Shown piece by piece: positions 1,881 through 28,199 of a stretch of DNA of 64,000 nt. The DNA is from an uncultured delta proteobacterium. Its GTDB lineage: Bacteria; Desulfobacterota; Desulfobacteria; Desulfobacterales; JAFDCJ01. The position numbers and the translations under genes are program-made. Numbering within the stretch: the first letter of the stretch is position 1; every line of letters starts with the position of its first letter. The stretch lies in contig CAVYNY010000035.1 of the NCBI GenBank assembly GCA_963769935.1, forward strand, positions 96,001 to 160,000. Direction: 5' to 3'. The notes below the pieces were generated by a model. That model had not been told where the DNA came from, made no database searches, and was given only the letters and a program-made list of their open reading frames with translations.

Positions 1881-1881
1881 G

Positions 1882-8673: not shown

Positions 8674-8877
8674 AACGCTCCTTAATTTATAAGCTCACCA
8701 AAATCATTACCAAATTATAATTAATTTTTTTAGTAATGCAATATTTTTTATATTGTGGTTCTTGACATTAACCAATTTGTCTTTAACATATATCTAACTT
8801 TTAGTGTTTGTCAACCAACGATATTAAATTTAATACTGTTGAGTGACCGTAGACCACAAAAAAAAGGAGGTTTCAAA

Positions 8878-9336: not shown

Positions 9337-9491
9337 AAATTTGCACAGCGCCATAATTAATTCTGCATTCGCCCTTTTGGGATGATATTTAAACTGCAGG
9401 ATCTGGTCAGATAGGCATTACGCTGTGTATGTATGTCTACAAAATGGTTTATAACGTATTGTACAGTTCAATACAAAGGAGGAAAATAGCA

Positions 9492-10034: not shown

Positions 10035-10274
10035 AAGCTTCCCAAAATAAGGCAAAGCGATTTTTAAAATGATTCAGCGAATCTTAATCCGGAAAATTTT
10101 TTAAAATCAAGGGATCTATTACGAAGATCTTCGAAATCAGCATCCGTAATTTCTACGGCGTCTTGCGCTAAGATATTACGAAAATGCGCCAGGGCGCTCC
10201 AAAGCCCTTCCTTCTTTACAAATCATAAAAAGAATCTAAACCTGAAAAAATTGCTTGCATTTTAATCCGGTCTA

Positions 10275-10294
10275 GTTGTATATACATCTATAAC
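10275..10294. promoter_or_regulatory. Putative GntR/HutC-type operator upstream of the regulator
   Basis: GTTGTATATACATCTATAAC contains the palindrome TGTATATACA. An 18-bp near-copy lies at 11305-11322. Confidence 0.6.
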
Positions 10295-10386
10295 GTCTAA
10301 CCGGAATGGTCGCTGCATCGATTTGACGGATTTTTTGCATTTGCTGAATTCCGGTGGGGCGCAGGACAATCAACCATTCACTGTGA

Positions 10387-11250
10387 ATGACGGCGCCTTT
10401 TGGCAATCAAAAGGGGAGATTACCCTTGAAAATTGTTGACGAATCCAATCCGATCCCCAAATATCTTCAAATCAGTGCCTGGCTGAAGGAACTGATCCAG
10501 ACCGGCCGCTATGCCGCCGGTGAAAGATTGCCTTCCGAAATCGAGCTTTCCAAAACGTGCGGCGTCAACCGCAATACCCTGCGCCAGGCCATCACCGAAT
10601 TAACCACGGCTGGGTTGCTGCGCAAAGAGAAGGGAACCGGAACCTTTGTCAGCAGTCCTTCAGCTGCCGGACTAAAACACAAACTGGAGCGGATTTCAAG
10701 CTTCAGGGATATGCTGGGGCAAAGCGGCATTGCCGCCCGAACCGAAGTCATCGGCCGGCGGATTGTAGATGCCGATGATTATGTGGCTAGAAGCCTGTTT
10801 CTGGGCACCAATAAAAAGGTACTGGTCGTCAGACGGGTTCGTGCCGGCAACGGTACGCCTTACATTTACGAGGAGAGCTACCTGCCGGCGGACATGTTTG
10901 AAGGCATTCTTGATTTGGATCTGACCGGCTCCATGTATGATATCATTTCCGAACACTTCGGCATTGTGCTGGCCCGGAGCAAACAGAATATCAGCGCCGT
11001 GAACCTTATTCCGAAGATCGCCAAAATACTCAAGGTCCCGGTCAATTCGGCCGCCATTTTTGCGGAAAGCATCACTTTTGATGCCAAGAGCATCCCCATC
11101 GAATTGTTATACTCGTATTACCGGGGGGACAAATATACGCTTGAGATCGAGCTCGGACGCTATCACGCCAATCCGGGCAGCATGAATATTAGAGCAGAAC
11201 AGACGGGTGGTTCCTCTGCATACGATTTGAAATTCAGCGGCGTCGCCTAA
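10387..11250 (+). CDS. GntR family transcriptional regulator, HutC/UTRA subfamily
   Basis: PKYLQI...LPSEIEL..GVNRNTLRQA...GTGTFV wHTH, then a UTRA-type C-terminal domain. The true start may be the TTG at 10426. Confidence 0.9.
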   Translation: MTAPFGNQKGRLPLKIVDESNPIPKYLQISAWLKELIQTGRYAAGERLPSEIELSKTCGVNRNTLRQAITELTTAGLLRKEKGTGTFVSSPSAAGLKHKLERISSFRDMLGQSGIAARTEVIGRRIVDADDYVARSLFLGTNKKVLVVRRVRAGNGTPYIYEESYLPADMFEGILDLDLTGSMYDIISEHFGIVLARSKQNISAVNLIPKIAKILKVPVNSAAIFAESITFDAKSIPIELLYSYYRGDKYTLEIELGRYHANPGSMNIRAEQTGGSSAYDLKFSGVA

Positions 11251-11304
11251 CTGAAAATGAACCATTTTTGAATAAAAATGTAATCTTTTCATTTAACAAT
11301 TAAC

Positions 11305-11322
11305 TGTTTATACATCTATAAC
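11305..11322. promoter_or_regulatory. Putative GntR/HutC-type operator upstream of the transaldolase-like gene
   Basis: TGTTTATACATCTATAAC matches 10277-10294 at 17 of 18 positions. Confidence 0.6.
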
Positions 11323-11349
11323 CGTTCCCAAAAAAAAGGAGGATTTACA

Positions 11350-12561
11350 ATGGAAGAAAGAAACTTTTTCGAAAGGCTGGTGGATGTTAGCCCGGGCATG
11401 GAGATCTGGTGGGATTCCTCGCCCGTCGTTTTCGAAAATTGGTGCAAGAAATTGCTTGAAAAAGCGGCGCCTGCTGATCGCGGGATATTGCAAAAGCAAT
11501 TCAACCGGATGTACAGCAAAGATAATCCCAAAAGCCAATTGTTTCGCGGCGTGACCACCAATCCGCCTCTATCCCTGCAAGCGATCCAGAATGATCCCCC
11601 TTACTGGCAAAAAGTGGCCAAGGATATTGTGGCAGCGAATCCGGGCCTGGACAAAGAGGGGCTTTTCTGGAAGCTTTACAAGACGGTCGTCAAGCGCGGC
11701 TCGGATATGTACCTGCCGCTTTTTGAAGCCAGCAATTACAAAGAAGGCTTTCTGTCCGGCCAGGTGGATCCGCGCAGCGTGTTTGATAAGGATGCCATGA
11801 TCAGACAGGCCGAGGAGATCGCGACCATCAACCCCAATGTCATGGTAAAGGTTCCCGGAACAAAGCAGGGCTACGAGGTCATCGAGTATCTGACATCCAA
11901 GGGGATTTCAACCAACAATACCCTGACCTTTATTCTGCCCCAGTTGATCGATTGTGCCAACAGCGTCAAGCGCGGCCTTGAAACCGCCCGGAAAAACGGC
12001 GTCAACCTGAGCAAATGGCGGTCGGTTATCACCCATATGGAAGGCCGATTCGGCAACCTGGGCGGCTTAAAGGACTTTGCCGCTGAAAAGGGTGTCGAAC
12101 TTTCCGACGGCGAGATCCGGCTGGCGGAACTGGCGATTTTCAAAAAGGCTTACAAATATCTGATTGAAAACAATTTGCCGAGCAAGATGCTCTCCTGTTC
12201 TTTGATCGCCGGGCCGACCGTTAACGGCCAAAGCCGCATCTGGCATCTGGAAGAAAAAGCGGGCGCCAATGTGGTCGTGACCTGCCCGCCTTCTTTCATA
12301 GAAAAGGTCCTTTTTCTGCCGGGTGTTGAAAAAATTACCTTTGAAAAAGATCGCATCCTGCAGGACATTCCCAAGGATGTGATGGATAAACTCATGCGGG
12401 TTCCTTATTTTGAAAGAGGTTACGCCGTCGACGGCTACACCCGGGATGAATACAACACCCATCCGTCGCTGCAAAAAACTGCCGAACAATTCTCCAAGGC
12501 AACCTGGGAAATGGTGGATTTCGCCGGCCGGTGCCTGGAAGGTGGCGCTTGTTTTACCTGA
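11350..12561 (+). CDS. Transaldolase/FSA-superfamily protein with an atypical active site
   Basis: WWDS, GVTTNPPL, Schiff-base Lys in VMVKVPGT, NNTLTF. Confidence 0.8.
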   Translation: MEERNFFERLVDVSPGMEIWWDSSPVVFENWCKKLLEKAAPADRGILQKQFNRMYSKDNPKSQLFRGVTTNPPLSLQAIQNDPPYWQKVAKDIVAANPGLDKEGLFWKLYKTVVKRGSDMYLPLFEASNYKEGFLSGQVDPRSVFDKDAMIRQAEEIATINPNVMVKVPGTKQGYEVIEYLTSKGISTNNTLTFILPQLIDCANSVKRGLETARKNGVNLSKWRSVITHMEGRFGNLGGLKDFAAEKGVELSDGEIRLAELAIFKKAYKYLIENNLPSKMLSCSLIAGPTVNGQSRIWHLEEKAGANVVVTCPPSFIEKVLFLPGVEKITFEKDRILQDIPKDVMDKLMRVPYFERGYAVDGYTRDEYNTHPSLQKTAEQFSKATWEMVDFAGRCLEGGACFT

Positions 12562-12679
12562 AGCCATTAATACACCGGCGGCCAAGGCTGACCAGCGGTT
12601 TTCCTGCCCCGGGCGGTAATGTTCGGAATCTAAATATGACGCTGTATACAATTGGTTATTGATCAGAAAGGGAAAGAAC

Positions 12680-13792
12680 ATGATCGTTGGTATTCCTAAG
12701 GAAATCAAGGCGGACGAGAATCGGGTGGCATTGACTCCGGGCGGTGTTGAAGTCATGTGTCAACACGGCCACACGGTGCTGATGCAAAAAACGGCCGGCC
12801 GGGCCAGCGGATTCGGCAATGCGCTTTACAAACAGGCCGGTGCTGAGATCGTGGACAAATCCGAGGAAATATTCAAACGTTCCGAGATGATTCTGCGCGT
12901 CAAGGAACCGCAGCCCTCCGAGTTTGGATACCTCAGAAAAGGCCAGATCTATTTCGGCTACCTGCACCTGGCGGCATCGCCAACCGTTGCGCAGGCCATG
13001 GTCAAAAGCGGCACGGTCGGCATTGCCTACGAGACGATTCAAAAGGCCGACGGCACCCTGCCGCTGCTCACCCCGATGAGTGAAGTGGCCGGCCCCATGG
13101 CGGTTCAGGAAGGCGCCAAGTATCTTGAAATGGCGCAGGGCGGCCACGGCATCCTGCTCGGCGGCGTGCCCGGCGTGGATCCGGGCACTGTGCTGATTAT
13201 CGGCGGCGGGGCGGTCGGCATCAATGCCGCGAAAATGGCCGGCGGATTGGGAGCCAGGGTGTATATTCTCGACGTCGATCTGGATCGCCTGCGCTATCTG
13301 AGCGATGTCATGCCCGGCAACTGTGTTACCTTGATGTCCAATCCGGCGAACATCCGGGAAATCCTCCCCAAAGCAGATCTTGTCATCGGGGCGGTGCTGG
13401 TTCCCGGCAGCAAAACGCCGACGCTGGTCACCCGGGATATGCTCGGTATGATGAAGAAAGGTTCGGTGCTGGTCGATGTCGCCATTGATCAGGGCGGGTG
13501 CTTTGAGACTTCCCGTGAGACCACCCATGCCAAACCAACTTATGAGGTCGACGGGATTATTCATTATGCCGTCAGCAACATGCCGGGGGCGCTGCCTCGA
13601 ACTTCTACCCTGGCACTGAATAATTCCACGCTGCCGTATGCCGTTGAAATTGCCGACAAGGGTTGGAAGAAAGCCATGCGGGAAAATCTTGAAATTAAGG
13701 CCGGGGCCAACGTGGTGCGCGGCAAGGTAACCTACAAAGGCGTTGCTGACACATTCGGCATCGAACACACGGCTGTTGATAAGCTGTTGTAA
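12680..13792 (+). CDS. ald: Alanine dehydrogenase, copy 1
   Basis: GIPKEIK..ENRV, VKEP, YLHLAA, PMSEVAG, GGGAVG, DVAIDQGGCFE, NMPG. Confidence 0.9.
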   Translation: MIVGIPKEIKADENRVALTPGGVEVMCQHGHTVLMQKTAGRASGFGNALYKQAGAEIVDKSEEIFKRSEMILRVKEPQPSEFGYLRKGQIYFGYLHLAASPTVAQAMVKSGTVGIAYETIQKADGTLPLLTPMSEVAGPMAVQEGAKYLEMAQGGHGILLGGVPGVDPGTVLIIGGGAVGINAAKMAGGLGARVYILDVDLDRLRYLSDVMPGNCVTLMSNPANIREILPKADLVIGAVLVPGSKTPTLVTRDMLGMMKKGSVLVDVAIDQGGCFETSRETTHAKPTYEVDGIIHYAVSNMPGALPRTSTLALNNSTLPYAVEIADKGWKKAMRENLEIKAGANVVRGKVTYKGVADTFGIEHTAVDKLL

Positions 13793-13850
13793 ACTGTTCT
13801 TTTCAGGCATTTAGCCATTCAACTTAATTCAGGCACATAAGGAGCTTACT

Positions 13851-14963
13851 ATGATTGTTGGGGTATTAAAGGAAATCAAGACGGAAGAAAATCGGGTGAG
13901 CATGACCCCTGCCGGGGTGGAGATCTTAAAACAAAACGGTCATACGGTCCTGGTGGAAAAGAATGCCGGCAAGGGCAGCGGATTTAACAACAAAACATAT
14001 GCGGATGCGGGCGCCGAGATTGTTGACATACCCGCGGAGATCTTCAAGCGTGCCAAGATGGTGATGCACGTCAAGGAACCCCTGCCGGCCGAATATGATC
14101 TCATTCGCAAAGATCAGATTATCTTTACTTATCTGCACCTGGCGGCGGCCGAGGAGTTGACCAGGGTTTTGATCAAGAGCGGCTCCATCAATATCGCCTA
14201 CGAGACGATTCAAAAATTGGATCGGTCTTTACCGCTGCTGACTCCCATGAGTGAAGTGGCCGGACGCATGGCGATTCAGCAGGGCGCCAAATATCTTGAA
14301 ATGGCCCAGGGCGGCCACGGTATATTGCTGGGCGGCGTGCCCGGTGTGGACCCGGGCACGGTCGTCATTATCGGCGGCGGCATTGTCGGCGTCAACGCCG
14401 CTAAAATGGCCTGCGGTCTGGGTGCCAAGGTGTACCTTCTCGACATGAACCTGGAACGGCTGCGCTATCTCAGTGATGTGATGCCCAGCAACTGCTTTTT
14501 GCTGATGTCCAAGCCGACAACCGTCCGCCGCCTCATCAAAGAGGCCGACGTCGTCGTTGGGGCCGTGCTGATCCCGGGCGCCAAGGCACCCAAACTGGTG
14601 ACGCGCGAAATGCTGAAAACCATGAAGAAAGGGGCGGTGCTGGTGGATGTGGCCATTGATCAGGGCGGGTGCTTTGAAACCTCGAAGGCGACCACCCATG
14701 GCGATCCGATATACAAAGTCGAAGGGGTCGTGCACTATTGCGTAGCGAATATGCCCGGCGCGGTTCCCAAGACCTCCACGCTGGCCCTGACCAATGCAAC
14801 GCTGCCCTATGCGGTTGAAATTGCAAATAAAGGCTGGAAAAAAGCCATGCAGGAAAACCCCGAAATCAGGTGCGGTGCCAATGTGATTCAAGGCAAGGTC
14901 ACCTATAAGGGGGTCGCGGAGGCTTTTGGACTGAAACTCACGCCGATTGATAGTTTGCTGTAA
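13851..14963 (+). CDS. ald: Alanine dehydrogenase, copy 2
   Basis: Same motifs, with canonical SEVAGRMA and CVANMPGAVP. Confidence 0.93.
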   Translation: MIVGVLKEIKTEENRVSMTPAGVEILKQNGHTVLVEKNAGKGSGFNNKTYADAGAEIVDIPAEIFKRAKMVMHVKEPLPAEYDLIRKDQIIFTYLHLAAAEELTRVLIKSGSINIAYETIQKLDRSLPLLTPMSEVAGRMAIQQGAKYLEMAQGGHGILLGGVPGVDPGTVVIIGGGIVGVNAAKMACGLGAKVYLLDMNLERLRYLSDVMPSNCFLLMSKPTTVRRLIKEADVVVGAVLIPGAKAPKLVTREMLKTMKKGAVLVDVAIDQGGCFETSKATTHGDPIYKVEGVVHYCVANMPGAVPKTSTLALTNATLPYAVEIANKGWKKAMQENPEIRCGANVIQGKVTYKGVAEAFGLKLTPIDSLL

Positions 14964-15004
14964 TTGGAAAAATTTTTGAATTAATATTTAATAAGGAGAA
15001 AAAC

Positions 15005-16096
15005 ATGAAAAAAGATTTAAAGGATTTGTTTGTTCCTTGGCTTTTTAAGGCCAGAGAGTACAACGTCGGCATTCTGGATAAGGCGATGGTCAACCCCGGT
15101 CATGCCCGCCTGATGCTCAATGAAAATCCCATGCAGCCATCGGAAAAGGTCATTGCAGCGGTGGCGGATTCCCTGAGGCACGGCAACTGGTACCCGGACA
15201 GTTTTCTGCGGTTGAGGACCAAAATCGGAAAAATGTATGGCCTGGGTCCGGATAATGTTGCTCTGGCCAACGGATCTTCGGATACCATCGACGCCATGAT
15301 GCGCGTTTTTCTGCAACCGGGTGATGAGTTTCTGCTGTCCACGCCGACCTTCGAGTTGTTTCCGCCCCGCGCCGAACTTTGCAATGCCAAGGTAGTTCAG
15401 GTTCCGGTCAGGAAAGATACTTTGAATTACGATGTGGATGGCATGCTGAAGGCCATCAATGACCGTACCAAGCTGATCCTGATTATTAATCCCAACAACC
15501 CCACCGGCCTCTATATCGATGATGATGATCTGATTCGATTCTGCGAAACGGGTATTCCCCTATGCGTGGATGAAGCCTATCTGGATTACAACCCCCAAAA
15601 GACATCCAAAGTATCCCTGCTCGAAAAATATCCGCAGGTGTTTCTGTCGGTTACCTTTTCCAAAGCCTATGGATTTGCGGGTATCCGATTCGGATTCGTG
15701 CTGGGCACCGAAGAGATGATTACCGCTTTCAATCGGATGTTTCTGCCCTGGAACGTGAGCCGGATGGCTGGGGCGGCCGCCGAAGCCATCATCGACAATC
15801 CGGACGAGGTCAAGGCGAAGGTCGAACACAACAACAAGTGGATGGCCGTGTTTGCGAAAGAGCTTAAAAATTTGGGGCTTAAACCTTTTCCGGCCAACGG
15901 CAATTACATGCTTATCGATGCCACCATGACCGGCAAAACCACCGAGGAGATTCTCCAAGCCGGCCTCGAGAATCGCATCTACCTGAAAAAGATCGGTGTC
16001 ATCCACGGCAAGACCGGTTATTTCAGGGTAACGCCCGGTTTGGATGAAGAAAACGAACGGTTCCTAAAATTTATCCGATCCTATTTCGGCAAATAG
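15005..16096 (+). CDS. PLP-dependent aminotransferase, HisC-like (class I/II)
   Basis: NENP, NGSSD, NPNNPTG, DEAY, TFSKAYGFAGIRFG. Confidence 0.85.
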   Translation: MKKDLKDLFVPWLFKAREYNVGILDKAMVNPGHARLMLNENPMQPSEKVIAAVADSLRHGNWYPDSFLRLRTKIGKMYGLGPDNVALANGSSDTIDAMMRVFLQPGDEFLLSTPTFELFPPRAELCNAKVVQVPVRKDTLNYDVDGMLKAINDRTKLILIINPNNPTGLYIDDDDLIRFCETGIPLCVDEAYLDYNPQKTSKVSLLEKYPQVFLSVTFSKAYGFAGIRFGFVLGTEEMITAFNRMFLPWNVSRMAGAAAEAIIDNPDEVKAKVEHNNKWMAVFAKELKNLGLKPFPANGNYMLIDATMTGKTTEEILQAGLENRIYLKKIGVIHGKTGYFRVTPGLDEENERFLKFIRSYFGK

Positions 16097-16129
16097 ATAG
16101 TGGTTGAACGAAAACCCGTCCAGCTCAGG

Positions 16130-16269
16130 TGTTGGGTTTCGCCCTCGGGCATCCATCTCAGCGTAAAAGCTTGATTTTCGTAGGTTGGGTTGAGGGACGA
16201 AACCCAATCCCGCCTGCGGCGGGACTCAACCCAACCTACCCGCAATCAGGACTTTTCGTTCAGGCACTA
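16130..16269. repeat. Dispersed ~140-bp REP/MITE-like element, copy 1
   Basis: Aligns with 31432-31571. Perfect 14-bp inverted repeat GTAGGTTGGGTTGA (16180) / TCAACCCAACCTAC (16226). Confidence 0.85.
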
Positions 16270-16525
16270 GCGATATCTATCGGCGTAATAATATGTATAA
16301 AAACTGAATATTTCCCCCTAGGAGCGATTTTAATTGAATTAAGTCTTGCAGTTAAAACCGCTCCTATAGTATGGGGGCAATGTTTTTTGTTAATTCCGTT
16401 TGGCTCCATTCCAAAAAATTCAAATCGTCTCGTTGTTTTGAGTTATCGCGAGATCTTCAAAGTTAACCATGAACCATTTCTTTCAAACATAAAAAACCTG
16501 GTTACTTTGTTTCAGGAAATTGGAT

Positions 16526-17296
16526 ATGAAGATCTATGTCTGTGTTAAGCATGTCCCCGATACAGCGGCCAAAATTACCGTGGTCGGGGAGACCGGTTTT
16601 GCGGAAACCTGCAAGTTCATTGTCAATCCTTATGACGAATACAGCCTGGAAGAGGCTGTTCAGATAAACGGCCGGGCCGGCCGGGGCGAGGTGGTGGTGG
16701 TGACCGTCGGCAAGGAATCCGCCGTTACGACGCTGCGCTCGGCGCTGGCGCTGGGGGCTGATCGCGGGATTCTGGTCAAAACGGAAGCCCAGTTTCTGGA
16801 CAGTGCTCTCACCGGCCGGGCATTAAAAAAGGCCATTGAGCAGGACGGGGTTCCGGATCTGATTTTTTGCGGCAAGCAGTCCATCGACAGTGAAGGCATG
16901 CAAACCCTGTTTCGGCTGGCAAAAGCTTTTGACATGCCGGCGGTCAGCGAAGTTGTCGCTCTAAGCCTAAATGACGGGGTGGCCAGGGTCGAGCGTGAAA
17001 TCGGCGGCGGTGCCCGCGAGGTGCTGGAAATGCCGCTGCCCTGCGTTATCGGTGCGACCAGAGGATTAAATGAGCCGCATTATCCGAAGCTGCCGGATAT
17101 CATGAAAGCCAAGAAAAAAGAGATCAAACAGATCGACATCGCTGAGCTTGGTTTGGATCTCACGGCGCCTCAAACTGAAATCATCCATCTTGAAGCCGTT
17201 GCCGAAAGAGGGCAGGCCCGGATGATGGCAGGGTCCACCCGCGAGATGGTGGAGGAGTTGGTCAGGATTCTGAAAGAGGAGGAGAAGGTGATCTGA
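16526..17296 (+). CDS. etfB: Electron transfer flavoprotein beta subunit
   Basis: MKIYVCVKHVPD, NPYDEYSLEEA, GKQSID, NEPHYP. Confidence 0.92.
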   Translation: MKIYVCVKHVPDTAAKITVVGETGFAETCKFIVNPYDEYSLEEAVQINGRAGRGEVVVVTVGKESAVTTLRSALALGADRGILVKTEAQFLDSALTGRALKKAIEQDGVPDLIFCGKQSIDSEGMQTLFRLAKAFDMPAVSEVVALSLNDGVARVEREIGGGAREVLEMPLPCVIGATRGLNEPHYPKLPDIMKAKKKEIKQIDIAELGLDLTAPQTEIIHLEAVAERGQARMMAGSTREMVEELVRILKEEEKVI

Positions 17297-17410
17297 ACGG
17301 AATGGCGAATGACGAATGACTAATATCGAATGTGACGAAAAGGGTTTCCGGTTTTAATAGCACCGAATCAAGCGTCATTTAAAAGTTTGAAGCATAGGAG
17401 AGAATATAAG

Positions 17411-18370
17411 ATGGCAAACATCGGCGTCTGGATTGAAACCAGTAATGGAGGTGTTAAGGAGGCAAATTTCGGGGTGTTGACCGCCGCCCGGCGCCAGGAG
17501 GGAGCTGCGATTTATGCCTTTATAATAAATGCCAAGGCCGGCGAATGCAAAAGCGTCCTGCAGTCATATGGTGCACAGAAAATCGTAGAGATAGCTGTGG
17601 AAGGTGGTGATCCGGCCGCCGATCCCGAACTGGATGCATACGCATTAGCAGAGGCCATCCATCACTTTGAGATATCGGCATTGCTGGGGCTCGGCAGTGC
17701 CAGAGGGCGTGATCTGCTGGCCAGAACGGCGGCCTTGATGGATGCGCCCCTGATACAGGATTGTATCGGGGTTGATCCGGCGGCCAAGACCGTGGTCAAA
17801 TCTCATTTTTCCGGCAAAACCCTGGCAACGATCCGGTTCAACTCAAATCCATACCTGTGCGGCCTGCGGCCCAACGCCATCGAACCGCAGACCGCGCCCT
17901 GCGAAGCGGAGGTGCTCAATTTTGCTGCGTCCGGGCATTCTGCCGCAAAATTGACGGTTAAAGAAATTAAACAGAGCCCGTCAAAGGCGGTGGATTTGAC
18001 CGAGGCCAATATCATCATTACCGGCGGCCGCCCGATCGCTTCGGCAGACAACTACAAAATCCTGCGGGAATGTGCCGCAGTTCTCGGAGCGGCAGTCGGT
18101 GCATCCCGGGCGGCCGTGGACGCCGGCTATGCCCCGCACAGTATGCAGGTGGGACAAACCGGTAAAACCGTCAGTCCTAAACTCTACATCGGGTGTGGGC
18201 TTTCCGGGTCGGTCCAGCATTTTGCAGGCATGAAAACTTCCAAAGTCATCGTCGCGATCAACACCGACAAAGACGCCCCGATTTTCGGCAAATGCGATTA
18301 CGGCATCGAGGGGGATCTGTTCGAGGTGGTGCCGGTGTTGACGGCGGTGCTTAAGGAGCAAATGGGTTAG
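17411..18370 (+). CDS. etfA: Electron transfer flavoprotein alpha subunit
   Basis: [35 protein letters not shown]. Confidence 0.92.
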
Positions 18371-18372
18371 GT

Positions 18373-18582
18373 TGATGCTGGATGCTGGATGATGGATAAT
18401 CAAGTGGTTTCAGGTGTCAGCAAGGGCTAAAGGATAAAGGTCAAAGGCGAAAGGTTAAAGGCGAAAGGCTGCCGGCGAGTGGTAAAAGGAATGGACAAAG
18501 ATCCGAGGTTTTGCTTTCCAGCCTCTAAACCTCAAATCTCTTTCTTCTGTCCTCTGGCCTCTGTCTTCTGACACCTGACATC
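18373..18582. repeat. Intergenic cluster of short tandem 6-7-mers with a flanking inverted repeat
   Basis: GATGCTG units, AAAGG-based units, CCTCTG/CTTCTG units. TCAGGTGTCAG pairs with CTGACACCTGA. Confidence 0.7.
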
Positions 18583-18602
18583 AATATTATAGCGATTAAC
18601 TC

Positions 18603-20609
18603 ATGAGCACATATTTCTGGATAAAATCGGTTTTAGTCGCAATTGCGATTGTGGCGGCGTTCAGTCTGTTTTTCACCAGGGTTCAAAGACTCTTCGCCCT
18701 GATGCGTGGGGTGCAGGGCAATGCTGCCTTTAAGCTGGATCGAATCGGCGAGCGGGTTAAGGCACTGTTTACCGATGTGCTCGGACAGCGCAATGTCAGG
18801 CGCAAACGCTGGCCGGGACTCGCCCACACGGTGATTTTTTTCGGATTTTTGGCGGTACAGCCGCACTCCCTGGAACTGATGATTCGCGGGATCTTTCCCT
18901 CCTTTCATGTGGGGGATGTGATTCCCCGTCTTTACGGCCTCTATTTTTTCACGGCCGATATCCTGGCTTTCCTGGTTCTGTTCGGCCTGGGATATGCGCT
19001 CTATCGGCGCTTGGTTGTCAAGCCCAAGTATCTGACCGACGGCCTCGATGCCCGGCTGATCATTGTATTCACCGCGGTTATAATTCTTACCTTTCACATT
19101 ACAAATGCCTTTCTGCTCATACCCTCGATCGGCGGCACCAGTTTTGATTATGCCCGCTATCTTACGGTTTCCAAGGTGGTGTACAAGGCCTTTCATCTGA
19201 ATGCCCTTTCGGCCGGCGCCGCTCGAACCGGCTTCGAAATTTTTTACTGGATCCATATCCTGACGATTCTCGGATTTTTAGTCTATATCCCCGGCTCCAA
19301 GCACTTGCACCTGCTGGCGGCAGTTCCCAACGTTTTTTTAAAGCCGCTGGACCGGCCCAAAGCCATGTTTAAAACCGATATCGAAAACGAAGAAGCCGAG
19401 AGTTTCGGCCTGGGAAACGTCTCGGCGTTGACCTGGAAAAATGTGCTGGATCTGTATGCCTGCACCGAATGCGGGCGCTGTGAGGAACAGTGCCCGGCGG
19501 ATATGACCGGCAAACCGCTGTCGCCCAAACGGGTGATTCACGATGCAAAAATCGATCTTTTCGATCAGGCAGCGGCTGTTCTGGCCTCAGACAATGCAGC
19601 GGCGGCGCCCCTGCTGCGGGAAAATTCTCCGATCACCGCCGAAGTCCTGTGGTCGTGTACGACCTGCCGGGCCTGTGAGGACATCTGCCCGGTCAATATC
19701 CAACATCTGGATATACTCCTTGAAGCCCGCAAATACCAGGTGCTGATGGAATCCAGCTTTCCGCCCGAAATGCAGGATACCTTCAATAATCTCGAAAACC
19801 AGTCCAATCCCTGGGGTTTCGGCAGCGACACGCGGGCGGATTGGGCCAAAGATCTGGATGTTCCTCTGATGACCGACAATCCGGAAGCGGATATTTTATA
19901 CTTTGTCGGCTGTGCGGGATCCTTTGACGACCGGGGGAAAAAGGTCGCCCGGGCCCTGGCCCGGGTTCTCAATAAGGCCGGCATAAACTTTGCCATTCTG
20001 GGGGAAGAGGAGCGCTGCAACGGCGATGTCGCCCGCCGGGCCGGCAATGAGTACCTGGCCCAGATGATGATGGCCGGGAATGCGGCGATTTTCAATCAGT
20101 ATCAGCCCAAAAAGATTCTGGCCGCCTGTCCCCACTGTTTTAACACCTTAAAAAATGAATACTCCCAGTTCGGCGTCCGCATTCCGGTGGTTCATCATAC
20201 CGAATTCTTACTGGAATTGATCAACCAGGGGCGATTGAAGACCAATGGAACTGAAATCCAAAAGCTGACATATCACGACTCCTGCTACCTGGGACGCTGG
20301 AACGGCATTTTTGAAGCGCCGCGCAACCTTCTGCTTGCAGTCAACAACGGCAAGAGTCTGTTTGAAATGAAGCGCATTGAAGATCAGGGACTTTGCTGCG
20401 GCGCCGGCGGTGCCCGGATGTTCATGGAAGAAACCATCGGCAAACGCATTAATCATGAGCGCGCCGAAGAAGTGATCGCAACGGGGGCGACTCAGGTTGC
20501 AGCGGCCTGCCCGTTTTGCATCACCATGCTGTCCGACGGTATCCGGGACAAGGGCGGCACTGTGCAGGTAAAAGATATTGCTGAAATCGTCGACGAAGCC
20601 ACGGATTAA
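18603..20609 (+). CDS. Membrane-bound Fe-S oxidoreductase (ETF:menaquinone oxidoreductase / FadF type)
   Basis: N-terminal TM region, CTECGRCEEQCP and CTTCRACEDICP, two CCG domains (YHDSCYLGR, CCGAGG, CPFC). Follows etfBA. Confidence 0.88.
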   Translation: MSTYFWIKSVLVAIAIVAAFSLFFTRVQRLFALMRGVQGNAAFKLDRIGERVKALFTDVLGQRNVRRKRWPGLAHTVIFFGFLAVQPHSLELMIRGIFPSFHVGDVIPRLYGLYFFTADILAFLVLFGLGYALYRRLVVKPKYLTDGLDARLIIVFTAVIILTFHITNAFLLIPSIGGTSFDYARYLTVSKVVYKAFHLNALSAGAARTGFEIFYWIHILTILGFLVYIPGSKHLHLLAAVPNVFLKPLDRPKAMFKTDIENEEAESFGLGNVSALTWKNVLDLYACTECGRCEEQCPADMTGKPLSPKRVIHDAKIDLFDQAAAVLASDNAAAAPLLRENSPITAEVLWSCTTCRACEDICPVNIQHLDILLEARKYQVLMESSFPPEMQDTFNNLENQSNPWGFGSDTRADWAKDLDVPLMTDNPEADILYFVGCAGSFDDRGKKVARALARVLNKAGINFAILGEEERCNGDVARRAGNEYLAQMMMAGNAAIFNQYQPKKILAACPHCFNTLKNEYSQFGVRIPVVHHTEFLLELINQGRLKTNGTEIQKLTYHDSCYLGRWNGIFEAPRNLLLAVNNGKSLFEMKRIEDQGLCCGAGGARMFMEETIGKRINHERAEEVIATGATQVAAACPFCITMLSDGIRDKGGTVQVKDIAEIVDEATD

Positions 20610-20680
20610 ACGTCGACCAGGGAGCAGCGGGTTGATATGGAAATATTTATTGCTTATAAAGGGCTTGCCATTGAAGTTGC

Positions 20681-20760
20681 GGAGTAGTGGAGTACTGGAG
20701 TGTTGGAATGTTGGAAATGATCCTCACCATTACTCCAATTCTCCATTACTCCATCACTCC
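20681..20760. repeat. Octamer-tandem inverted repeat (GGAGTAnT family), copy 2
   Basis: GGAGTAGTGGAGTACTGGAG followed by CCATTACTCCAATTCTCCATTACTCCATCACTCC. Confidence 0.75.
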
Positions 20761-20826
20761 GGTTTCTTAAGATTCCGGATTTTTTCTGTCACATCCAAAT
20801 TTATACTAAATTAAGGAGATGGTCTC

Positions 20827-23250
20827 ATGCAAGACAGCACCCGGGTCGTAATTATCGGCGGCGGCATTATCGGCTGCAGCACGGCCTATCATCTGACCCA
20901 GATGGGCTGGCAGGATGTCGTCATCCTTGAAAAAGGCGAGTTGACCAGCGGATCGACCTGGCATGCGGCCGGCCTGGTGGGGCAACTGCGATCGGAGCGC
21001 AATATTACCCGCATGCTGCAGTACAGCGTCAGCCTTTATGATAAACTGGAAGCGGAAACCGGTCTGGCAACCGGCTGGAAAATGAGCGGCTGCCTGCATC
21101 TGGCCGGCACGCGGGAGCGAATGTACGAACTGCAAAAAGGCGCCACCACCGCGCGCAGCTTCGGACTTGAGATGAACATGATCACCCCCGAGGAAGCTTA
21201 CGACCTCTGCCCGATTATTTCCCTGGACGGCATTATCGGGGCGGCCTTTATGCCCACCGACGGGCAGGCCGACCCCGCCGGTATCACCCAGGCCCTTGCC
21301 AAAGGCGCCCGCAGCCGCGGGGCGGCAATTTACGAGCATACATTGGTTACCGGTTTTGAATTCAACAAAAAGCGGGTGTCTTCCGTGAAAACCGACAAGG
21401 GCGATATCCGGTGTGAGATCGTGGTCAATTGCACCGGAATGTGGGGCCATCAGCTTGGGCAGATGCTGGGCGTCAATACGCCGGTGGTACCCTTTCAGCA
21501 CCAGTACCTGGTTACGGAGCAGATTGAAGGGCTGTCGCCGAACTTGCCCACCATCCGCGACAAGGACAGCCTGATTTACTACAAGGAGGAAGTCGGCGGT
21601 CTGGTGATGGGCGGCTACGAGCGCAACGGCATTGCCTGGGGGATCGACGGGGTCGCCAATGACTTCAATTCGCAGCTGCTGGAACCGAACTTCGATCATT
21701 TTCAGCAGCTCTCGGATCCGGCCATGCAGCGGACGCCGTGCCTGGCGCAAGCCGGGATTGCCAGACTGGTAAACGGCCCGGAAGGCTTTACCCCGGACGG
21801 CGATGCCATCCTGGGTCCGGCGCCGGAACTGGACAATGTGTTTGTGGCCGTGGGGTTTAATGCCTTCGGAATCGCCGCCGGCGGCGGCGCCGGCCGTATG
21901 ATGGCCGAGTGGATTATCGAGGGCGAGCCGAGCCTGAATATCTGGCCGCTGGATATTCGCCGCTTCGGACCGCACCACCGCAGCCGGGCCTACAATGTTG
22001 CCAGAACCGGAGAGCTTTACGGCAAGCATTACACCATCCACTGGCCCCATGAGGAACATGACGCCGCCCGCGGGGTAAGACGCAGTCCGCTATATTTCCC
22101 CTTGAAAGAAAAGGGTGCGGTATACGGCGCCAAATACGGCTGGGAACGTGCCAACTGGTTTGCTCCGCCGGGTGTGGCACCCCAGGATGATCATACTTTT
22201 GAAATTCCCAACTGGTTTGACCATGTGGCCGCCGAGCATAAAAATGCCCGGGAAAACGTGGTGCTGGTCGATCAATCCTCCTTCAGCAAGTTCGAAGTGG
22301 AAGGCCCCGGTGCATTGGCTTTTTTGAATAGACTATGCGCCAACCAGATCGATAAACCTGTCGGCAAGGTTGTCTACAGCCAGATGTGCAACGCCAGGGG
22401 TACTATCGAGGTCGACTTAACCATCGGGCGGCTGGACCAGGACCGCTTTTTGCTGGTTGTGGGCACCGCCTTTGGATTGCGCGCTTTCGGGTGGCTAAAA
22501 AATCACCTGCCGTCCGACGGTTCGGTGGCAGTCAAGGAGATGACATCGGCCTACGCGGTCATTAATGTCATCGGCCCAAAATCAAGAAAACTGCTGCAGA
22601 AATTGACATCGGCCGACTTAAGCAATGAAGGCTTTGCCTTCGGTACCTGCAAAATATTTGCCGTCGGGTATGCTCCGGTCATGGCGTATCGCGTCACCTA
22701 CGTCGGGGAGCTGGGATATGAGCTTTACATACCGGCCGAATTTGCCGTCCAGGTCTATGAGTCTCTCTGGGAGGCCGGTCAGGATCTCGGCATCAAAAAC
22801 GCGGGTTATCGTACCATCGCCTCCCTGCATCTGGAAAAAGGCTACGCCGACTGGGGGTCGGAGCTAACTCCGGAGTATACCCCCTTCGATGCGGGCCTTG
22901 GGTTCTGTGTGGCGCTTGAAAAAGACGATTTTATCGGCAAACAAGCGCTGGCGAAGATCAAAACCGAAGGACCCAAATTGAGGCTTTGCACGTTTACCCT
23001 GGAGACCGGCCGGCCGTTGATGCTCCATGGCAGTGCGCCGATTATTTATAATGGCAAAGTTCTGGGTGTTGTAACCAGTTCCGGGTACGGCCATACCGTT
23101 AAGAAAAACATTTGCTATGGTTATATTGCTGTGGCAGATATGCGGCGGGATGAAGATTACGCGATTGAAGCTTTTCAGCAGGTGTATAAGGCCAGACTGG
23201 AACCCAGCCGGGTCCTGTATGATCCGGAAAGAAAGAAGATCCTGATGTAA
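20827..23250 (+). CDS. FAD-dependent oxidoreductase fused to a GcvT folate-binding domain (dimethylglycine/sarcosine dehydrogenase family)
   Basis: GGGIIG, STWHAAGL (covalent-FAD His motif), NGPEGFTPDG, GWERANWF, YVGELGYEL, LEKGY. 807 aa. Confidence 0.9.
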   Translation: MQDSTRVVIIGGGIIGCSTAYHLTQMGWQDVVILEKGELTSGSTWHAAGLVGQLRSERNITRMLQYSVSLYDKLEAETGLATGWKMSGCLHLAGTRERMYELQKGATTARSFGLEMNMITPEEAYDLCPIISLDGIIGAAFMPTDGQADPAGITQALAKGARSRGAAIYEHTLVTGFEFNKKRVSSVKTDKGDIRCEIVVNCTGMWGHQLGQMLGVNTPVVPFQHQYLVTEQIEGLSPNLPTIRDKDSLIYYKEEVGGLVMGGYERNGIAWGIDGVANDFNSQLLEPNFDHFQQLSDPAMQRTPCLAQAGIARLVNGPEGFTPDGDAILGPAPELDNVFVAVGFNAFGIAAGGGAGRMMAEWIIEGEPSLNIWPLDIRRFGPHHRSRAYNVARTGELYGKHYTIHWPHEEHDAARGVRRSPLYFPLKEKGAVYGAKYGWERANWFAPPGVAPQDDHTFEIPNWFDHVAAEHKNARENVVLVDQSSFSKFEVEGPGALAFLNRLCANQIDKPVGKVVYSQMCNARGTIEVDLTIGRLDQDRFLLVVGTAFGLRAFGWLKNHLPSDGSVAVKEMTSAYAVINVIGPKSRKLLQKLTSADLSNEGFAFGTCKIFAVGYAPVMAYRVTYVGELGYELYIPAEFAVQVYESLWEAGQDLGIKNAGYRTIASLHLEKGYADWGSELTPEYTPFDAGLGFCVALEKDDFIGKQALAKIKTEGPKLRLCTFTLETGRPLMLHGSAPIIYNGKVLGVVTSSGYGHTVKKNICYGYIAVADMRRDEDYAIEAFQQVYKARLEPSRVLYDPERKKILM

Positions 23251-23377
23251 TCCGATTGCTTTAAATTGCAGTTGGAAGTTATTTGTTATTTGTAGAATAG
23301 AGATAGGATTTGTTAAGTATATGATCAATATTATCATGACAAAGCCTGAAATGGGTCCTGTGAAAGGAGAATAAAGG

Positions 23378-25404
23378 ATGAAAAAAGGTTCAGCGACAAA
23401 AAAGACCGGCCTCGATGCCCTTTGTATCAACACGATTAGAACCCTGGCAATGGATGCGGTGCAGGCGGCCAACTCCGGCCACCCGGGAGCACCCATGGGG
23501 CTGGCTCCCGCCGCCTATGTGTTGTGGACCCGGGTAATGAAGCACAATCCTGAAAATCCGGCCTGGGTCGATCGTGATCGTTTTGTGCTCTCGGCGGGCC
23601 ACGCCTCCATGCTGCTCTATAGCCTGCTCTTTCTGACCGGCTATGACGTCAGCCTGGATGAGATCAAAAATTTTCGCCAGTGGGGCAGCAAAACACCCGG
23701 CCATCCGGAATACGGTCATACACCGGGCGTTGAGACCACCACCGGTCCCCTGGGACAGGGGTTTTCCAATGCGGTGGGCATGGCCATGGCGGAGAGCCAT
23801 CTGGCGGCGAAATTCAATCGCGGCAGCCAGCAAGATCGTCGACCACTACACCTATATCATTTGCGGTGACGGCGACTTGATGGAAGGCATTAGTTCGGAA
23901 GCGGCATCCCTGGCGGGACATCTCGGACTGGGCAAGCTGATCTGCATCTACGATGACAACAAGATCTCCATCGAGGGCGGGACCGATCTGGCGTTTACCG
24001 AGGATGTCGCGGCTCGTTTCCAGGCCTACAACTGGCATGTCGTGCGGGTCAACGACGGCAACGATATTGCAGCCATCGAGCAGGCGCTCAAAGAGGCCCG
24101 GGCGGAAGCGGCGAAGCCGTCGCTGATCGTAACGCGCACCCACATCGCTTACGGCAGCCCCAACAAGCAGGATTCCCACGATGCCCACGGCGCGCCGCTG
24201 GGCGAGGAAGAAGTGCGCCTGACCAAAGAAAATCTCGGCTGGCCGGCCGATAAGACATTTTACGTTCCGGCAGCAGGCGCTCAAAGCATTTCGCAAATGC
24301 GCTCGACAAAGGCCGCAAGGCCGAGGCCGCCTGGCAAAAAAAGTTTACGGCCTATGCCGCTAAGCATCCCGCGGCAGCCGAAGAATGGCAGGCGGCCATA
24401 GCCAACAAGCTGGTCAAGGGATGGGATGCCGCGAGTGCCGAATTTTGAGGACGGCAAGCCGATTGCCACGCGGGCTGCTTCGGGCAAGGTGCTCAACGCC
24501 CTGGCAGAAAAACTGCCCACCCTGATCGGCGGGTCGGCCGATCTGGCGCCTTCCAACAACACCCTGCTTAAATCGTCATTCGATTTTCAGAAGGGCTCCT
24601 ACGATGGGCGCAATATTCATTTCGGTGTGCGGGAGCATGCCATGGGGGCGATACTTTCCGGCCTGGCGCTTCACAAAGGCGTTCGCCCTTACGGCGGAAC
24701 GTTTCTGGTGTTTTCCGACTACTGCCGGCCGGCCATCCGTCTGGCGTCGCTGATGAAGCTGCCGGTCATCTACGTCTTTACCCATGACAGTGTCGCCTTG
24801 GGCGAAGACGGCCCGACGCATCAACCGGTGGAGCATCTGGCGGCCTTGAGGGCCATTCCCGGGTTGACGGTTATTCGGCCGGCGGATGCCACCGAAACCG
24901 CGGCGGCCTGGCGGGTGGCCCTTAAAACCCCCAATGCGCCGGTGGCCCTGATCCTAACCCGTCAGAACCTGCCGGTGCTTGACCGGAAACTGTATCCCTC
25001 GGCGAGCGCTCTGGCCAAGGGCGGATATGTCCTGGCGGATTCAAAGGGCACGCCGGATGTGATCCTGATCGGCAGCGGTTCGGAGGTGCATCTGTGCCTG
25101 GAAGCCCAGGGGCTTTTGGCCAAACAGGGTGTGGCCGCCAGGGTGGTGAGCCTGCCCAGCTGGGAACTATTTGAAAAGGCGTCCCAAAGCTACCGGGACA
25201 AAGTGCTGCCCCCGTCGGTGACCGTCAGGGTAGCGGTTGAAGCCGGAGCCGGCTTTGGCTGGGAGCGATATGTCGGCCGCAAGGGAGGCGATCATCGGGA
25301 TCAACCGCTTCGGTGCCTCGGCCCCCGGCGGGACCGTCATGGAAAAATACGGCATGAAGGCTTCGGCGGTTGTTTCCAAAGCCATGAGTCTATTGAAGGG
25401 CTGA
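23378..25404 (+). CDS. tkt: Transketolase, split by about five apparent +1 insertions
   Basis: [52 protein letters not shown], spread across ORFs 23378, 23643 and 24426. Confidence 0.88.
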
Positions 25405-25466
25405 GCAGCCTTCTTTTCACAATGTTTTAAAGCGTAATACTTGCGACGCGTTTCGCAACTTGCTTC

Positions 25467-25498
25467 AAAAGCCGGCGCCTTGTGCGTGCCGGCTTTTT
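25467..25498 (+). terminator. Rho-independent terminator after tkt
   Basis: AAAAGCCGGC-loop-GCCGGCTTTTT. Confidence 0.75.
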
Positions 25499-25773: not shown

Positions 25774-27625
25774 ATGAATCAGCACTCTTTGTCTGAAAAA
25801 AAGATAAGGCAGGCCGTGGAAGAATGGCAGGCCACATTTGATGCCATTCCGGACCTTGTCTCGATCATTGACCGCGATTTCCGGCTCCGAGCAGTGAACA
25901 GAGCCTTCACGAATGCCTTCAAGATGAAGCCTGAGGATCTTCTGGGGAAGAAGTGCCACGAGATCATGCATCACACCGCAGAGCCCTGGCCGGATTGTCC
26001 CCACAGGCAATCGAACGCAAGCAACTGCGTCGTGACAGAGGAATTCCTGGAACCGCGCCTGGGGCTGTTCCTGCAAGTCACCTGCTCGCCGATCCGAAAT
26101 GAACGGGGCGAGCCCGTCGGTACGGTCCACATTGCCAGGGACATCACGGAACGGAAGAAAGCAGAGGATGCCCTGCGGCAAGCACGTGAAGGTATTCAAA
26201 AGCAGGTGGACAGGCAAACGGAAGCGCTTACCCGCGCAAACGAGGATCTGACCGCTTCCATTGAACGAATGCGTAGCGAAATGGAGAAACGCGAAGCAGC
26301 CGAGTCGGCTATGAAAGAGCAGTTGCGATTCGAGAGGCTGCTGGCGGAAATTTCGACATTCTTTATCAATCTCCCTGCCGACCGGATCGACAGCGAAATT
26401 GAAGCCGCCCAGCGCCGCGTCTGCGAGTTCCTCGATCTTGATCGCTCCTCACTTTTCCAGGCCGATGAAGAAGATCCCGAGACGCTGATGATGACCCATT
26501 TTCATCAGCCTCCGGGAAGTCGGATACCTCCGGAGCGGGTGAGTTTGAAGGAATTCTTTCCCTGGTCGCTGCCGAAGGTTTTGGGCGGAGAAACGATCAC
26601 GATTTCGAAAATGACCGATCTCCCGGCGGAAGCCGGCCGCGACCGGGAGACTTTCGGCCTCTACGGCACCCGGTCCGTCGTGGTCGCCCCGTTAGCGGTA
26701 GGAACAAGGGGAGTATTTGGCCTGTTGACCTTTGCGGTCATGCGGGAGGAAAGAGAATGGACGCAAACGGACAGCACGGTCCTCATCCTCGGTGAAACCG
26801 GCACCGGAAAAGAGCTGCTGGCCAGAGCAATCCATCGCATGAGCGACCGCAACGCCAGGCCCCTGGTGACCGTTAACTGCGCATCCCTGCCGCCCGCGCT
26901 CATTGAAAGCGAACTTTTCGGCCGGGAAAAAGGCGCTTACACCGGGGCTTTGACCCAGATGATCGGCCGTTTCGAGATTGCCGATCAGTCCACCCTCTTT
27001 CTCGATGAGATCGGTGAAATCCCCCTGGAATTGCAGAGCAAGCTGCTCAGAGTCCTCGAGGCCGGCAGGTTCGAGCGGCTGGGATCCACCAAGACCCTGC
27101 AGGTGAATGTCCGCATTATTGCCGCCACCAACCGAGACCTTGCCCAGGCGGTTCAGGCAGACGGATTCAGGAAGGATCTGTTTTACCGGCTAAATGTATT
27201 TCCCATTGTGATGCCGCCCCTGCGCGAGCATCCCGACGATACTCCCTCTCATGGTCTGGTCGTTTGTCAAGGAGTTTCAAAAAAAGATGGGAAGGCGGAT
27301 CGAACATATTCCCAAAGATATCATGCAAAAACTGCAATCCCATGGCTGGCCGGGAAACGTCAGGGAACTGCGGAACGTGATCGAACGCGCCATGATCATG
27401 AGCACCGGGGAAACTCTGGTTGTTGACCTGGCCGAATTTTCATCCTCCCAAACAAAGGCGGCCGGTGAACTCGAGAATATGGAGCGCAGTTACATCACGG
27501 CCGTGCTGGCGAAGGCCGGCTGGCGCGTCGGCGGAAAGGGCGGCGCGGCCGAAATCCTGGGTCTGAACCGAACGACCTTGTATTCTAAAATAAAGAAATT
27601 GGGCATCCATCGTCCGAATCCCTGA
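25774..27625 (+). CDS. Sigma54-dependent regulator (PAS, partial GAF, AAA+, HTH) with an internal deletion near 26760 and a frameshift near 27243
   Basis: [40 protein letters not shown]. Second frame carries [10 protein letters not shown] and a Fis-type HTH. Confidence 0.85.
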
Positions 27626-28193: not shown

Positions 28194-28199
28194 ATTACA

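Follow-up and report, generated by a model that had tools for sequence, protein, structure and literature searches.

Which compound is broken down by the ten co-oriented genes at positions 10,275 to 25,498 of a 64,000-nucleotide stretch of DNA (the window, G000:C35:96001-160000), taken from the 8.0 Mb, 96.7% complete genome of an uncultured sediment bacterium? The genes encode a GntR repressor (gntR), a transaldolase-like enzyme (tal), two alanine dehydrogenases (Ald; ald1 and ald2), an aminotransferase, both subunits of an electron transfer flavoprotein (ETF; etfB and etfA), a membrane Fe-S oxidoreductase, a dehydrogenase of the dimethylglycine dehydrogenase (DMGDH) family and a transketolase (tkt). 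An earlier sequence-only reading placed them in a pathway for an N-methylated amino sugar or aminopolyol. Profile searches and structure-database matches bear out the families and positions of all ten, each on the plus strand; the linkage of the genes and the reaction logic (N-demethylation with electrons passed to ETF, transamination with recycling by Ald, entry through the aldolase and Tkt) hold as well. The substrate named there and its supply by genes further upstream do not. The block is real and conserved, and it most likely encodes a new catabolic pathway for ethanolamine phosphate, by which the ethanolamine head group of membrane lipids and its N-methylated forms would be consumed. To judge from the sequence comparisons given below, it is probable that the operon serves the GntR-repressed catabolism of ethanolamine phosphate and its N-methylated forms by demethylation, transamination and formation of D-xylulose 5-phosphate (Xu5P).

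Exchange of tal for a class II aldolase and CbbY

The genes were profiled in 151 genomes of the order, which span about ten families. The tal gene was found in 19 of them, the aminotransferase in 25, a choline/ethanolamine kinase in 19, EtoX (the binding protein of a TRAP transporter) in 22 and an orthologue of the dehydrogenase in 20. The aminotransferase accompanies tal in 18 of the 19 genomes and occurs without it in seven; five of these seven carry instead a class II ketose-bisphosphate aldolase together with a HAD hydrolase. The aldolase, a distinct one, is present in 6 of the 151 genomes, in all six with the aminotransferase and in five of the six without tal. The best structure matches of the neighbouring HAD protein are AtCbbY (4UAV, E 2e-62) and RsCbbY (4UAR, E 1e-38), with the next family at E 2e-15; with its cap-domain motifs it can be classed as a putative CbbY.

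Eighty metagenomic loci retrieved by means of the class II aldolase, a set independent of the tal loci described below, give the same picture: cbbY is present in 74, gntR in 45, ald in 30, the aminotransferase (at least 40% identity) in 29, the dehydrogenase in 14 and tal in one. Twelve of the 80 read gntR-aldolase-cbbY-ald-ald-aminotransferase, which is the order of the window with tal swapped, and one locus (L180) holds EtoX, the kinase and the dehydrogenase as well. Tal and the pair of aldolase and CbbY are mutually near-exclusive and are exchanged in place.

The exchange is informative about the substrate. CbbY converts xylulose 1,5-bisphosphate (XuBP) to Xu5P, and XuBP is formed by aldol addition of dihydroxyacetone phosphate and glycolaldehyde phosphate (PMC10212915). 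The presence of CbbY implies a C5 bisphosphate and hence a C2 aldehyde phosphate. The aldolase and CbbY would take glycolaldehyde phosphate to Xu5P; judged from the stereochemistry of TAL, a transaldolase that transfers a dihydroxyacetone unit would reach the same Xu5P in one step.

Conservation of the block

The genes are co-conserved far beyond chance, as the neighbourhoods of 20 relatives' loci chosen by the tal gene demonstrate, many of them ending at contig ends: ald is present in 18, the aminotransferase in 14, gntR in 13, the dehydrogenase in 8 and tkt in 4. With the tal protein as the query, a larger set of 80 loci was drawn from species genomes (many again end at contig ends, and some are duplicates of one contig). 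It contains the aminotransferase 58 times, ald 45, gntR 43, etfB 15, etfA 14, the full-length dehydrogenase 12, the choline/ethanolamine kinase 11, the TRAP transporter 10, a non-pyrrolysine MttB 5 and an APH-type kinase 4 times. The conserved core, formed by tal and the aminotransferase, also occurs in records of Thermoleophilia and other Actinomycetota; where close homologues of the tal protein of the window are named, their labels are Desulfobacterales or Deltaproteobacteria. In the 151-genome profile the aminotransferase is found in 18 of the 19 kinase genomes, and among the 19 tal genomes the kinase is found in 15 and the dehydrogenase in 16.

An additional block follows the aminotransferase in 15-17 of the 80 loci (L070, L075, L103, L105 and L109 among them), all from one clade. 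It consists of class IV aminotransferase, alanine racemase, CapA-like, Asp/Glu racemase-like and D-Ala-D-Ala ligase-like genes.

The common operator

The repressor gene gntR (10387..11250, plus strand; PF00392 and PF07702) encodes a protein of the HutC/UTRA type. It is preceded by a palindrome that is conserved among the relatives, and a matrix trained on the relatives' sites was run over the whole genome. The top match is this palindromic GntR/HutC-type operator (10273..10290, score 30.0), and the second lies upstream of tal (11301..11318, score 20.2). The third of the three best matches is situated 292 bp upstream of the EtoX gene of the same genome, at G000:C2:12210. A score of at least 15 is reached upstream of 46 of 77 gntR orthologues, training loci included. 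A second matrix, whose training loci contained no EtoX, reached 15 or more upstream of 10 of 18 EtoX genes and of 17 of 22 divergent tkt genes. For 162 control genes (86 aminotransferase, 30 dehydrogenase and 6 etfB genes, and 40 from three bystander families) it stayed below 15 in every case; some of the loci are duplicates.

The first matrix bears on the supply of substrate by the genes at 1-4276 of the window, which had been thought to feed the pathway. This region, which continues to G000:C35:93411, encodes a zinc-dependent dehydrogenase and an ABC transporter of the sugar type that has two ATPases. No operator score there exceeds 5.6, and the two sites of the operon reach 30 and 20.2; the dehydrogenase was found (E<=1e-80) in 1 of the 151 genomes, namely this one, and in none of the 20 relatives' loci. 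The proposed feed finds no support.

Proposed uptake and activation of the substrate

A TRAP binding protein adjoins the cluster in 10 of the 80 tal loci, and another is encoded in the present genome; they match PDB 4UAB with E-values of 9e-149 and 6e-145, and for the relatives' protein the next structure match follows at 2e-18. We take 4UAB to be Csal_0678. Both Csal_0678 and its homologue EtoX bind ethanolamine, and for EtoX the reports give a Kd of 7.9 uM for ethanolamine and no binding of phosphoethanolamine (PMC4646407, PMC10132767). The kinase adjoining the TRAP genes has the choline kinase LicA as its best structure match (4R77, E 9e-22). In the present genome the EtoX-like TRAP transporter and the LicA-type kinase form one block (G000:C2:7676-11918). 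EutB and CutC gave no match above cut-off in this 96.7% complete genome.

The transporter, the kinase, the regulon and the replacement of tal by aldolase and CbbY indicate a two-carbon substrate, ethanolamine or its phosphate; the amino sugar or aminopolyol proposed before is probably not the compound concerned. The gene set would be chemically compatible with a larger N-methylated amino sugar or aminopolyol (or another amino alcohol, e.g. serinol or alaninol) that is demethylated, transaminated and then cleaved or transferred by the aldolase, and kinases of the LicA type and binders of the EtoX type may take close analogues of their substrates. Such a substrate is nevertheless very improbable: the sugar ABC transporter and dehydrogenase are unlinked to the operon, the invariant Trp249 in the aminotransferase pocket suggests a small substrate, and the CbbY argument for a C2 aldehyde phosphate speaks against it.

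Some clusters contain a different uptake system. Several relatives have an ABC system resembling AepX/PhnS2 within the cluster, 18 of the 151 genomes contain one, and the present genome has this AepX/AfuA-like system at G000:C15:72056. Together with phosphonate-associated LysR, HAD and alcohol dehydrogenase (ADH) genes beside tal in Paracoccaceae, and with the natural occurrence of N-methyl-2-aminoethylphosphonate (PMC10590968), it might suggest that the substrates are 2-aminoethylphosphonate (AEP) and its N-methyl forms and the aldehyde is phosphonoacetaldehyde. We regard this as very unlikely. The families of aminoethylphosphonate transport and catabolism (PhnS2/T2/U2, PhnX-like, phn LysR) all score under their cut-offs (TIGR03262 479 bits with a cut-off of 593, TIGR03351 165 with 219, TIGR03339 276 with 341), and the best PDB match of the binder is 4R72, presumably a sugar-phosphate binder. 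A kinase and an ethanolamine TRAP transporter would be pointless for a phosphonate, and an aldol product with a C-P bond would have no known entry to central metabolism.

Transaldolase-like enzyme

The tal protein (11350..12561, plus strand) scores 105 bits on PF00923; its best score on an NCBIfam transaldolase model is 102 bits with a cut-off of 367, and it stays below every such cut-off. In the AF2 model (pLDDT 96.3) the best fold match is the TAL of Corynebacterium glutamicum, with a TM of 0.69 to TAL structures. The predicted structure is a TAL/FSA barrel with a Schiff-base lysine, K167, found in 58 of 60 family rows, and the sugar- or phosphate-binding and Schiff-base positions K167, D22, N71, T191 and R233 are retained. 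The canonical Glu/Phe pair of transaldolases is replaced: Q138 (59 of 60 rows) occupies the position of Glu in S-x-E-V, and M230 (58 of 60 rows) that of the second Phe in S-F-F-x-S-R. We take these positions to be E96, the acid-base Glu, and F178 of TalB. The Gln59/Tyr131 pair of FSA, with the roles given in PMC13259622, is retained in its Gln, with Met in place of Tyr. By its modelled fold and by its context the protein is transaldolase-like, and it falls outside both the TAL and the FSA class.

As compared with E. coli TalB, FsaA and the actinobacterial TAL, the enzyme has the same predicted fold, the Schiff-base lysine and the sugar-binding Asp, Asn, Thr and Arg. It differs from them by Gln/Met in place of Glu/Phe (TAL) or Gln/Tyr (FSA), by a helical N-terminal insertion and by its length of about 400 residues; its identity to the listed solved TAL and FSA structures is 16-22%.

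The Gln at the FSA position also bears on another role for the enzyme. With the same substrate, transketolase might capture glycolaldehyde phosphate to form erythrulose 4-phosphate while tal rebalances sugars or acts in an FSA-like manner with free glycolaldehyde or dihydroxyacetone. Within the 80 tal loci a divergent transketolase is found in 23 (a classic tkt in 12) and RpiB with a split Tkt in 2; one genome, G096, combines the aminotransferase and the divergent Tkt with no match to tal or the aldolase; and HAD phosphatases are located near several clusters. The in-place swap of tal for aldolase and CbbY, whose product would be Xu5P, speaks against this scheme, as does the missing Tyr at the FSA position; for the rebalancing of sugars the genome already has a separate canonical transaldolase (G000:C10:606415). 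Capture by transketolase is unlikely on this evidence, and formation of Xu5P by tal remains our preferred assignment.

A tree of the 78 tal rows (quick search, midpoint root) places the Paracoccaceae rows within the clade of the window, and no donor is claimed. That the change from Arg to Ile at residue 286 marks a non-phosphorylated acceptor was considered and rejected, for kinases occur in both clades and TALs of the actinobacterial type have Gly there. In the Paracoccaceae loci L041, L049, L092 and L093 the tal gene (82-85% identity) lies beside an HpnZ-like ADH, a PhnX-like HAD, a phosphonate-type LysR and peptide ABC transporters; L041 and L093 have class II aldolase and CbbY-like genes besides tal. 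A literature search yielded no explanation for the HpnZ/HpnX-like genes.

More distant tal relatives (40-45% identity) are located beside acetoin-dehydrogenase-like or tkt genes and were not used for the assignment of function. Gln/Met transaldolase-family genes (about 44% identity) lie inside acetoin-dehydrogenase-like E1/E2/E3 clusters at L154:4982-16499 and L142:8734-13154, and near a distant Gln/Met transaldolase gene of Shinella there are genes for a class II aldolase and for a CbbY-like HAD (49%).

Aminotransferase and alanine dehydrogenases

The aminotransferase (15005..16096, plus strand) is a HisC-like class I/II enzyme of subfamily I-beta, which scores 270.8 bits on TIGR01141, just under the cut-off of 276.55. 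With the phosphate site of the Mycobacterium tuberculosis enzyme (Arg337, Arg346, Asn176 and the lid Tyr25) as the HisC reference, 50-51 of 51 rows keep the anion site Y19/N165/K328/R341, in which Lys stands for the first Arg of HisC. The hydrophilic tetrad that holds the imidazole in HisC (Asn103, Tyr127, Met129, Tyr261) is replaced by S92, F116, L118 and W249. An anion site of the HisC type together with a lost imidazole pocket and an invariant Trp would fit two small substrates, and we propose that the enzyme is a phosphoethanolamine:pyruvate aminotransferase. A separate HisC-like gene with 33% identity is found at G000:C22:585203.

The two alanine dehydrogenases, ald1 (12659..13792, the divergent copy) and ald2 (13851..14963), both on the plus strand, are 68% identical and score 516 and 514.5 bits on TIGR00518, above its cut-off of 391.85. 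Residues R15, K75, H96, D270 and N300, presumably those with roles in alanine dehydrogenase, are kept in both copies. The ald2 clade (16 rows) has a mean identity of 92%, and to ald2 we assign the recycling of alanine to pyruvate, NH4+ and NADH. The divergent copy belongs to a conserved clade of its own, in whose 19 rows changes close to the active site are fixed, e.g. P139, S299 and N314 in the numbering of ald2, and it is possible that ald1 has a distinct substrate.

Proposed demethylation and electron transfer

The dehydrogenase (20827..23250, plus strand) has the domain order DAO, FAO_M, GCV_T and GCV_T_C of the DMGDH/sarcosine family and the STWH flavin motif, and its best PDB match is dimethylglycine dehydrogenase (E 9e-164). 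It is not a free-standing sarcosine or dimethylglycine enzyme, since of the 20 genomes with an orthologue (66% identity or more) 18 contain the aminotransferase too; in locus L137 it adjoins the kinase. We propose that it is an N-methyl/N,N-dimethylethanolamine(-phosphate) dehydrogenase with a folate-binding domain, which the context of the gene favours. Its electrons would be accepted by the ETF encoded by etfB (16520..17296; PF01012) and etfA (17387..18370; PF00766 and PF01012) and transferred to the membrane 2x[4Fe-4S]/CCG protein (18603..20609; PF02754 twice and Fer4), all on the plus strand. The last of these we take to be an ETF:menaquinone oxidoreductase.

Several relatives without an orthologue of the dehydrogenase have MttB-family genes in the cluster, with an in-frame TAG in 8 of 8 examined, and PylS was found in 5 of 5 tested genomes. 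We take the cluster MttB genes to be alternative demethylases, presumably of non-quaternary amines. An MttB of the cluster type and the APH kinase were not found in the present genome (the best MttB match has 25% identity; APH gave none). It does contain PylS (G000:C11:287202) and several MttB-family genes (on C13, C14 and C20), and may use pyrrolysine.

The demethylases also bear on the direction of the pathway. Transaldolase, aminotransferase and Ald steps are reversible, and the genes might make phosphoethanolamine from Xu5P by way of glycolaldehyde phosphate, with uptake and the kinase serving for salvage. Demethylases and ETF are catabolic, though, dephosphorylation by CbbY drives toward Xu5P, one operator covers uptake and enzymes, and the genome holds two phosphatidylserine decarboxylase family genes for normal phosphatidylethanolamine synthesis. 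A biosynthetic direction appears highly improbable, and the operon is treated as catabolic in what follows.

Proposed pathway

In the proposed catabolism of ethanolamine phosphate, uptake and activation would be encoded elsewhere in the genome: the EtoX-like TRAP transporter and the LicA-type kinase would provide phosphoethanolamine, and the AepX/AfuA-like ABC system may import the phosphorylated form directly. The DMGDH-like enzyme would strip N-methyl groups from the mono- and dimethyl forms to give methylene-tetrahydrofolate, acting on either the free or the phosphorylated amines; EtfAB and then the membrane Fe-S/CCG protein would carry the electrons to the quinone pool. What the sequences show are the gene families, their co-conservation, the shared operator and the exchange of tal for aldolase and CbbY; all enzyme activities and the direction of flux are predicted. 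The HisC-like enzyme would convert phosphoethanolamine and pyruvate to glycolaldehyde 2-phosphate and alanine, and Ald would return alanine to pyruvate with release of NH4+ and NADH. With a ketose phosphate as donor, probably fructose 6-phosphate, the tal enzyme would then place a dihydroxyacetone unit on glycolaldehyde 2-phosphate, giving Xu5P and glyceraldehyde 3-phosphate, and would be a fructose-6-phosphate:glycolaldehyde-2-phosphate transaldolase. Tkt and housekeeping enzymes would regenerate the donor, with the net conversion of three C2 units to two glyceraldehyde 3-phosphate and one phosphate.

Several observations weigh against this pathway. The 151 genomes are related and not independent, and p-values for co-occurrence overstate; four tal genomes have no match to the kinase, and two aminotransferase genomes have neither tal nor the class II aldolase. 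Shuffled operator matrices give on average 1.07 matches above 20 per genome (7 at most) against 3 real ones, so that the positions of the matches count and their number is unremarkable. Eight of the 18 EtoX genes have no operator at a score of at least 15, and neither has the ABC locus on C15 of the present genome (best score 6.7). The ABC binder scores 317-329 bits on TIGR03261, a putative aminoethylphosphonate family with a cut-off of 393, and the Paracoccaceae tal loci are without the aminotransferase, the phosphonate-associated genes beside them scoring below cut-off. The anion site of the aminotransferase cannot tell phosphate from carboxylate or phosphonate. The tal enzyme has neither known acid-base residue (the Glu of TAL or the Tyr of FSA), and residue 286, Ile in the clade of the window, is Arg in 51 of 78 relatives.

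With less assurance, we lean slightly towards a broader interpretation, in which glycolaldehyde 2-phosphate is a natural catabolic intermediate and phospholipid head groups are fully degraded by a B12-free and radical-free route of interchangeable modules in sediment sulfate reducers, Syntrophales-like bacteria and Thermoleophilia. The modules would be flavin/ETF or pyrrolysine-MttB demethylases on the one hand and the Gln/Met transaldolase or the class II aldolase with CbbY on the other; the Gln/Met transaldolase would form a new class, and CbbY would serve amine catabolism, not Rubisco repair. In the open literature, judged by titles and the openings of abstracts, no description of this route was found; subscription journals and supplements were outside the scope of the search.

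Ethanolamine and choline head groups come from all decaying biomass. Known anaerobic routes include those of EutBC and CutC, the latter yielding trimethylamine, a methane precursor. If the present assignment is true, there is a further route, in which both carbons are kept as sugar phosphate, nitrogen is freed as ammonia and N-methyl groups are oxidised without trimethylamine. The predicted activities (phosphoethanolamine aminotransferase, glycolaldehyde-phosphate transaldolase and a natural XuBP aldolase/CbbY pair) bear on synthetic C2 assimilation.

Boundaries of the block and neighbouring genes

The last gene, tkt (23378..25430, plus strand), identified by domain and family profiles, is frameshifted in the assembly: it is split over three open reading frames by five single-base insertions relative to three relatives. 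In contigs from other sequencing runs the base near 23829 is missing in 4 of 4 and the base near 24271 in 3 of 4. As contigs of the other runs are without the inserted bases at these two places, the broken tkt is probably a local assembly error. For the near-identical run X1 the piece at 23692-25105 shows 45 letters and 4 gaps of difference from the window, against 0-5 letters in each of the seven further X1 pieces listed; from this comparison, for which 12 of 22 indel rows were listed, a pseudogene was judged unlikely. Further split genes in the assembly are alr on C9 and a DMGDH paralogue on C1.

The terminator noticed earlier behind the block was found again as a strong, intrinsic-terminator-like hairpin with a 12-pair stem and a T-rich tail (25467..25497, plus strand), which closes the block. 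The scan gave 29 such sites against 21.7 +/- 4.5 in shuffled sequences, so that the hairpin is informative by its position alone. Contigs of two sediment RNA libraries lie on 29 and 30 of 30 bins; contig depth can neither rank genes nor prove transcription, and this coverage was therefore left out of the evidence.

A palindromic REP-like repeat (16121-16270) is situated between the aminotransferase and etfB, with 20 blastn matches in the genome, one of them at about 31432 of the window; in another strain, represented by an RNA-library contig, a copy lies between gntR and tal. Upstream of the block are a four-subunit 2-oxoacid:ferredoxin oxidoreductase (4706-7701) and two Hsp20 genes (8755-9902), which were not seen in the 20 relatives' tal loci. 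Downstream (25774-29163) follow a PAS/GAF sigma-54 activator and a sulfatase, apparently truncated or frameshifted.

Comparison with known systems

The couple of Tpa and Ald serves taurine catabolism. The proposed pathway shares with it, and with AEP catabolism by PhnW and PhnX (PMC8154272), the pyruvate-dependent transamination of an anion-bearing C2 amine and, as with Tpa, recycling by Ald. The taurine, AEP, EutBC and ethanolamine-phosphate phospho-lyase routes cleave off the anion to give acetaldehyde or acetyl units, whereas here the phosphate would stay and the C2 unit would be condensed into a sugar by means of a subfamily I-beta aminotransferase, with no B12 or radical step.

A second likeness concerns the order of phosphorylation and demethylation. 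In Eubacterium limosum choline is demethylated through phosphocholine by MthK and MthB, and the MthK/MthB/MthC/MthA system has in common with the proposed pathway that an amino alcohol is phosphorylated and then demethylated to folate (PMC12155760). Pairs of a kinase and an MttB are found in the relatives' clusters and may be counterparts of MthK and MthB. E. limosum ends at dimethylaminoethanol; the present cluster, by contrast, would demethylate by a flavin/ETF enzyme and use up the C2-N backbone as well. It is itself no Mth cluster, as kinase, MttB and corrinoid protein are all absent from its ten genes.

With the EtoXVW and gamma-glutamyl ethanolamine pathway of Chromohalobacter and Phaeobacter (PMC10132767) the system shares the family of the TRAP binding protein. 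Unlike there, a kinase follows here; the phosphate ester would be transaminated and its carbon passed to pentose phosphates. As to CbbY, the known enzymes RsCbbY and AtCbbYA repair a Rubisco by-product (PMC10212915). The relatives' HAD protein, which best matches CbbY, has the identical proposed product, Xu5P, and its gene pairs with a class II aldolase gene in an amine-catabolic operon. In the window a single TAL-family enzyme replaces the pair. Each part belongs to a known family, and in its layout the pathway resembles taurine catabolism, AEP catabolism and Mth; the route itself is none of these.

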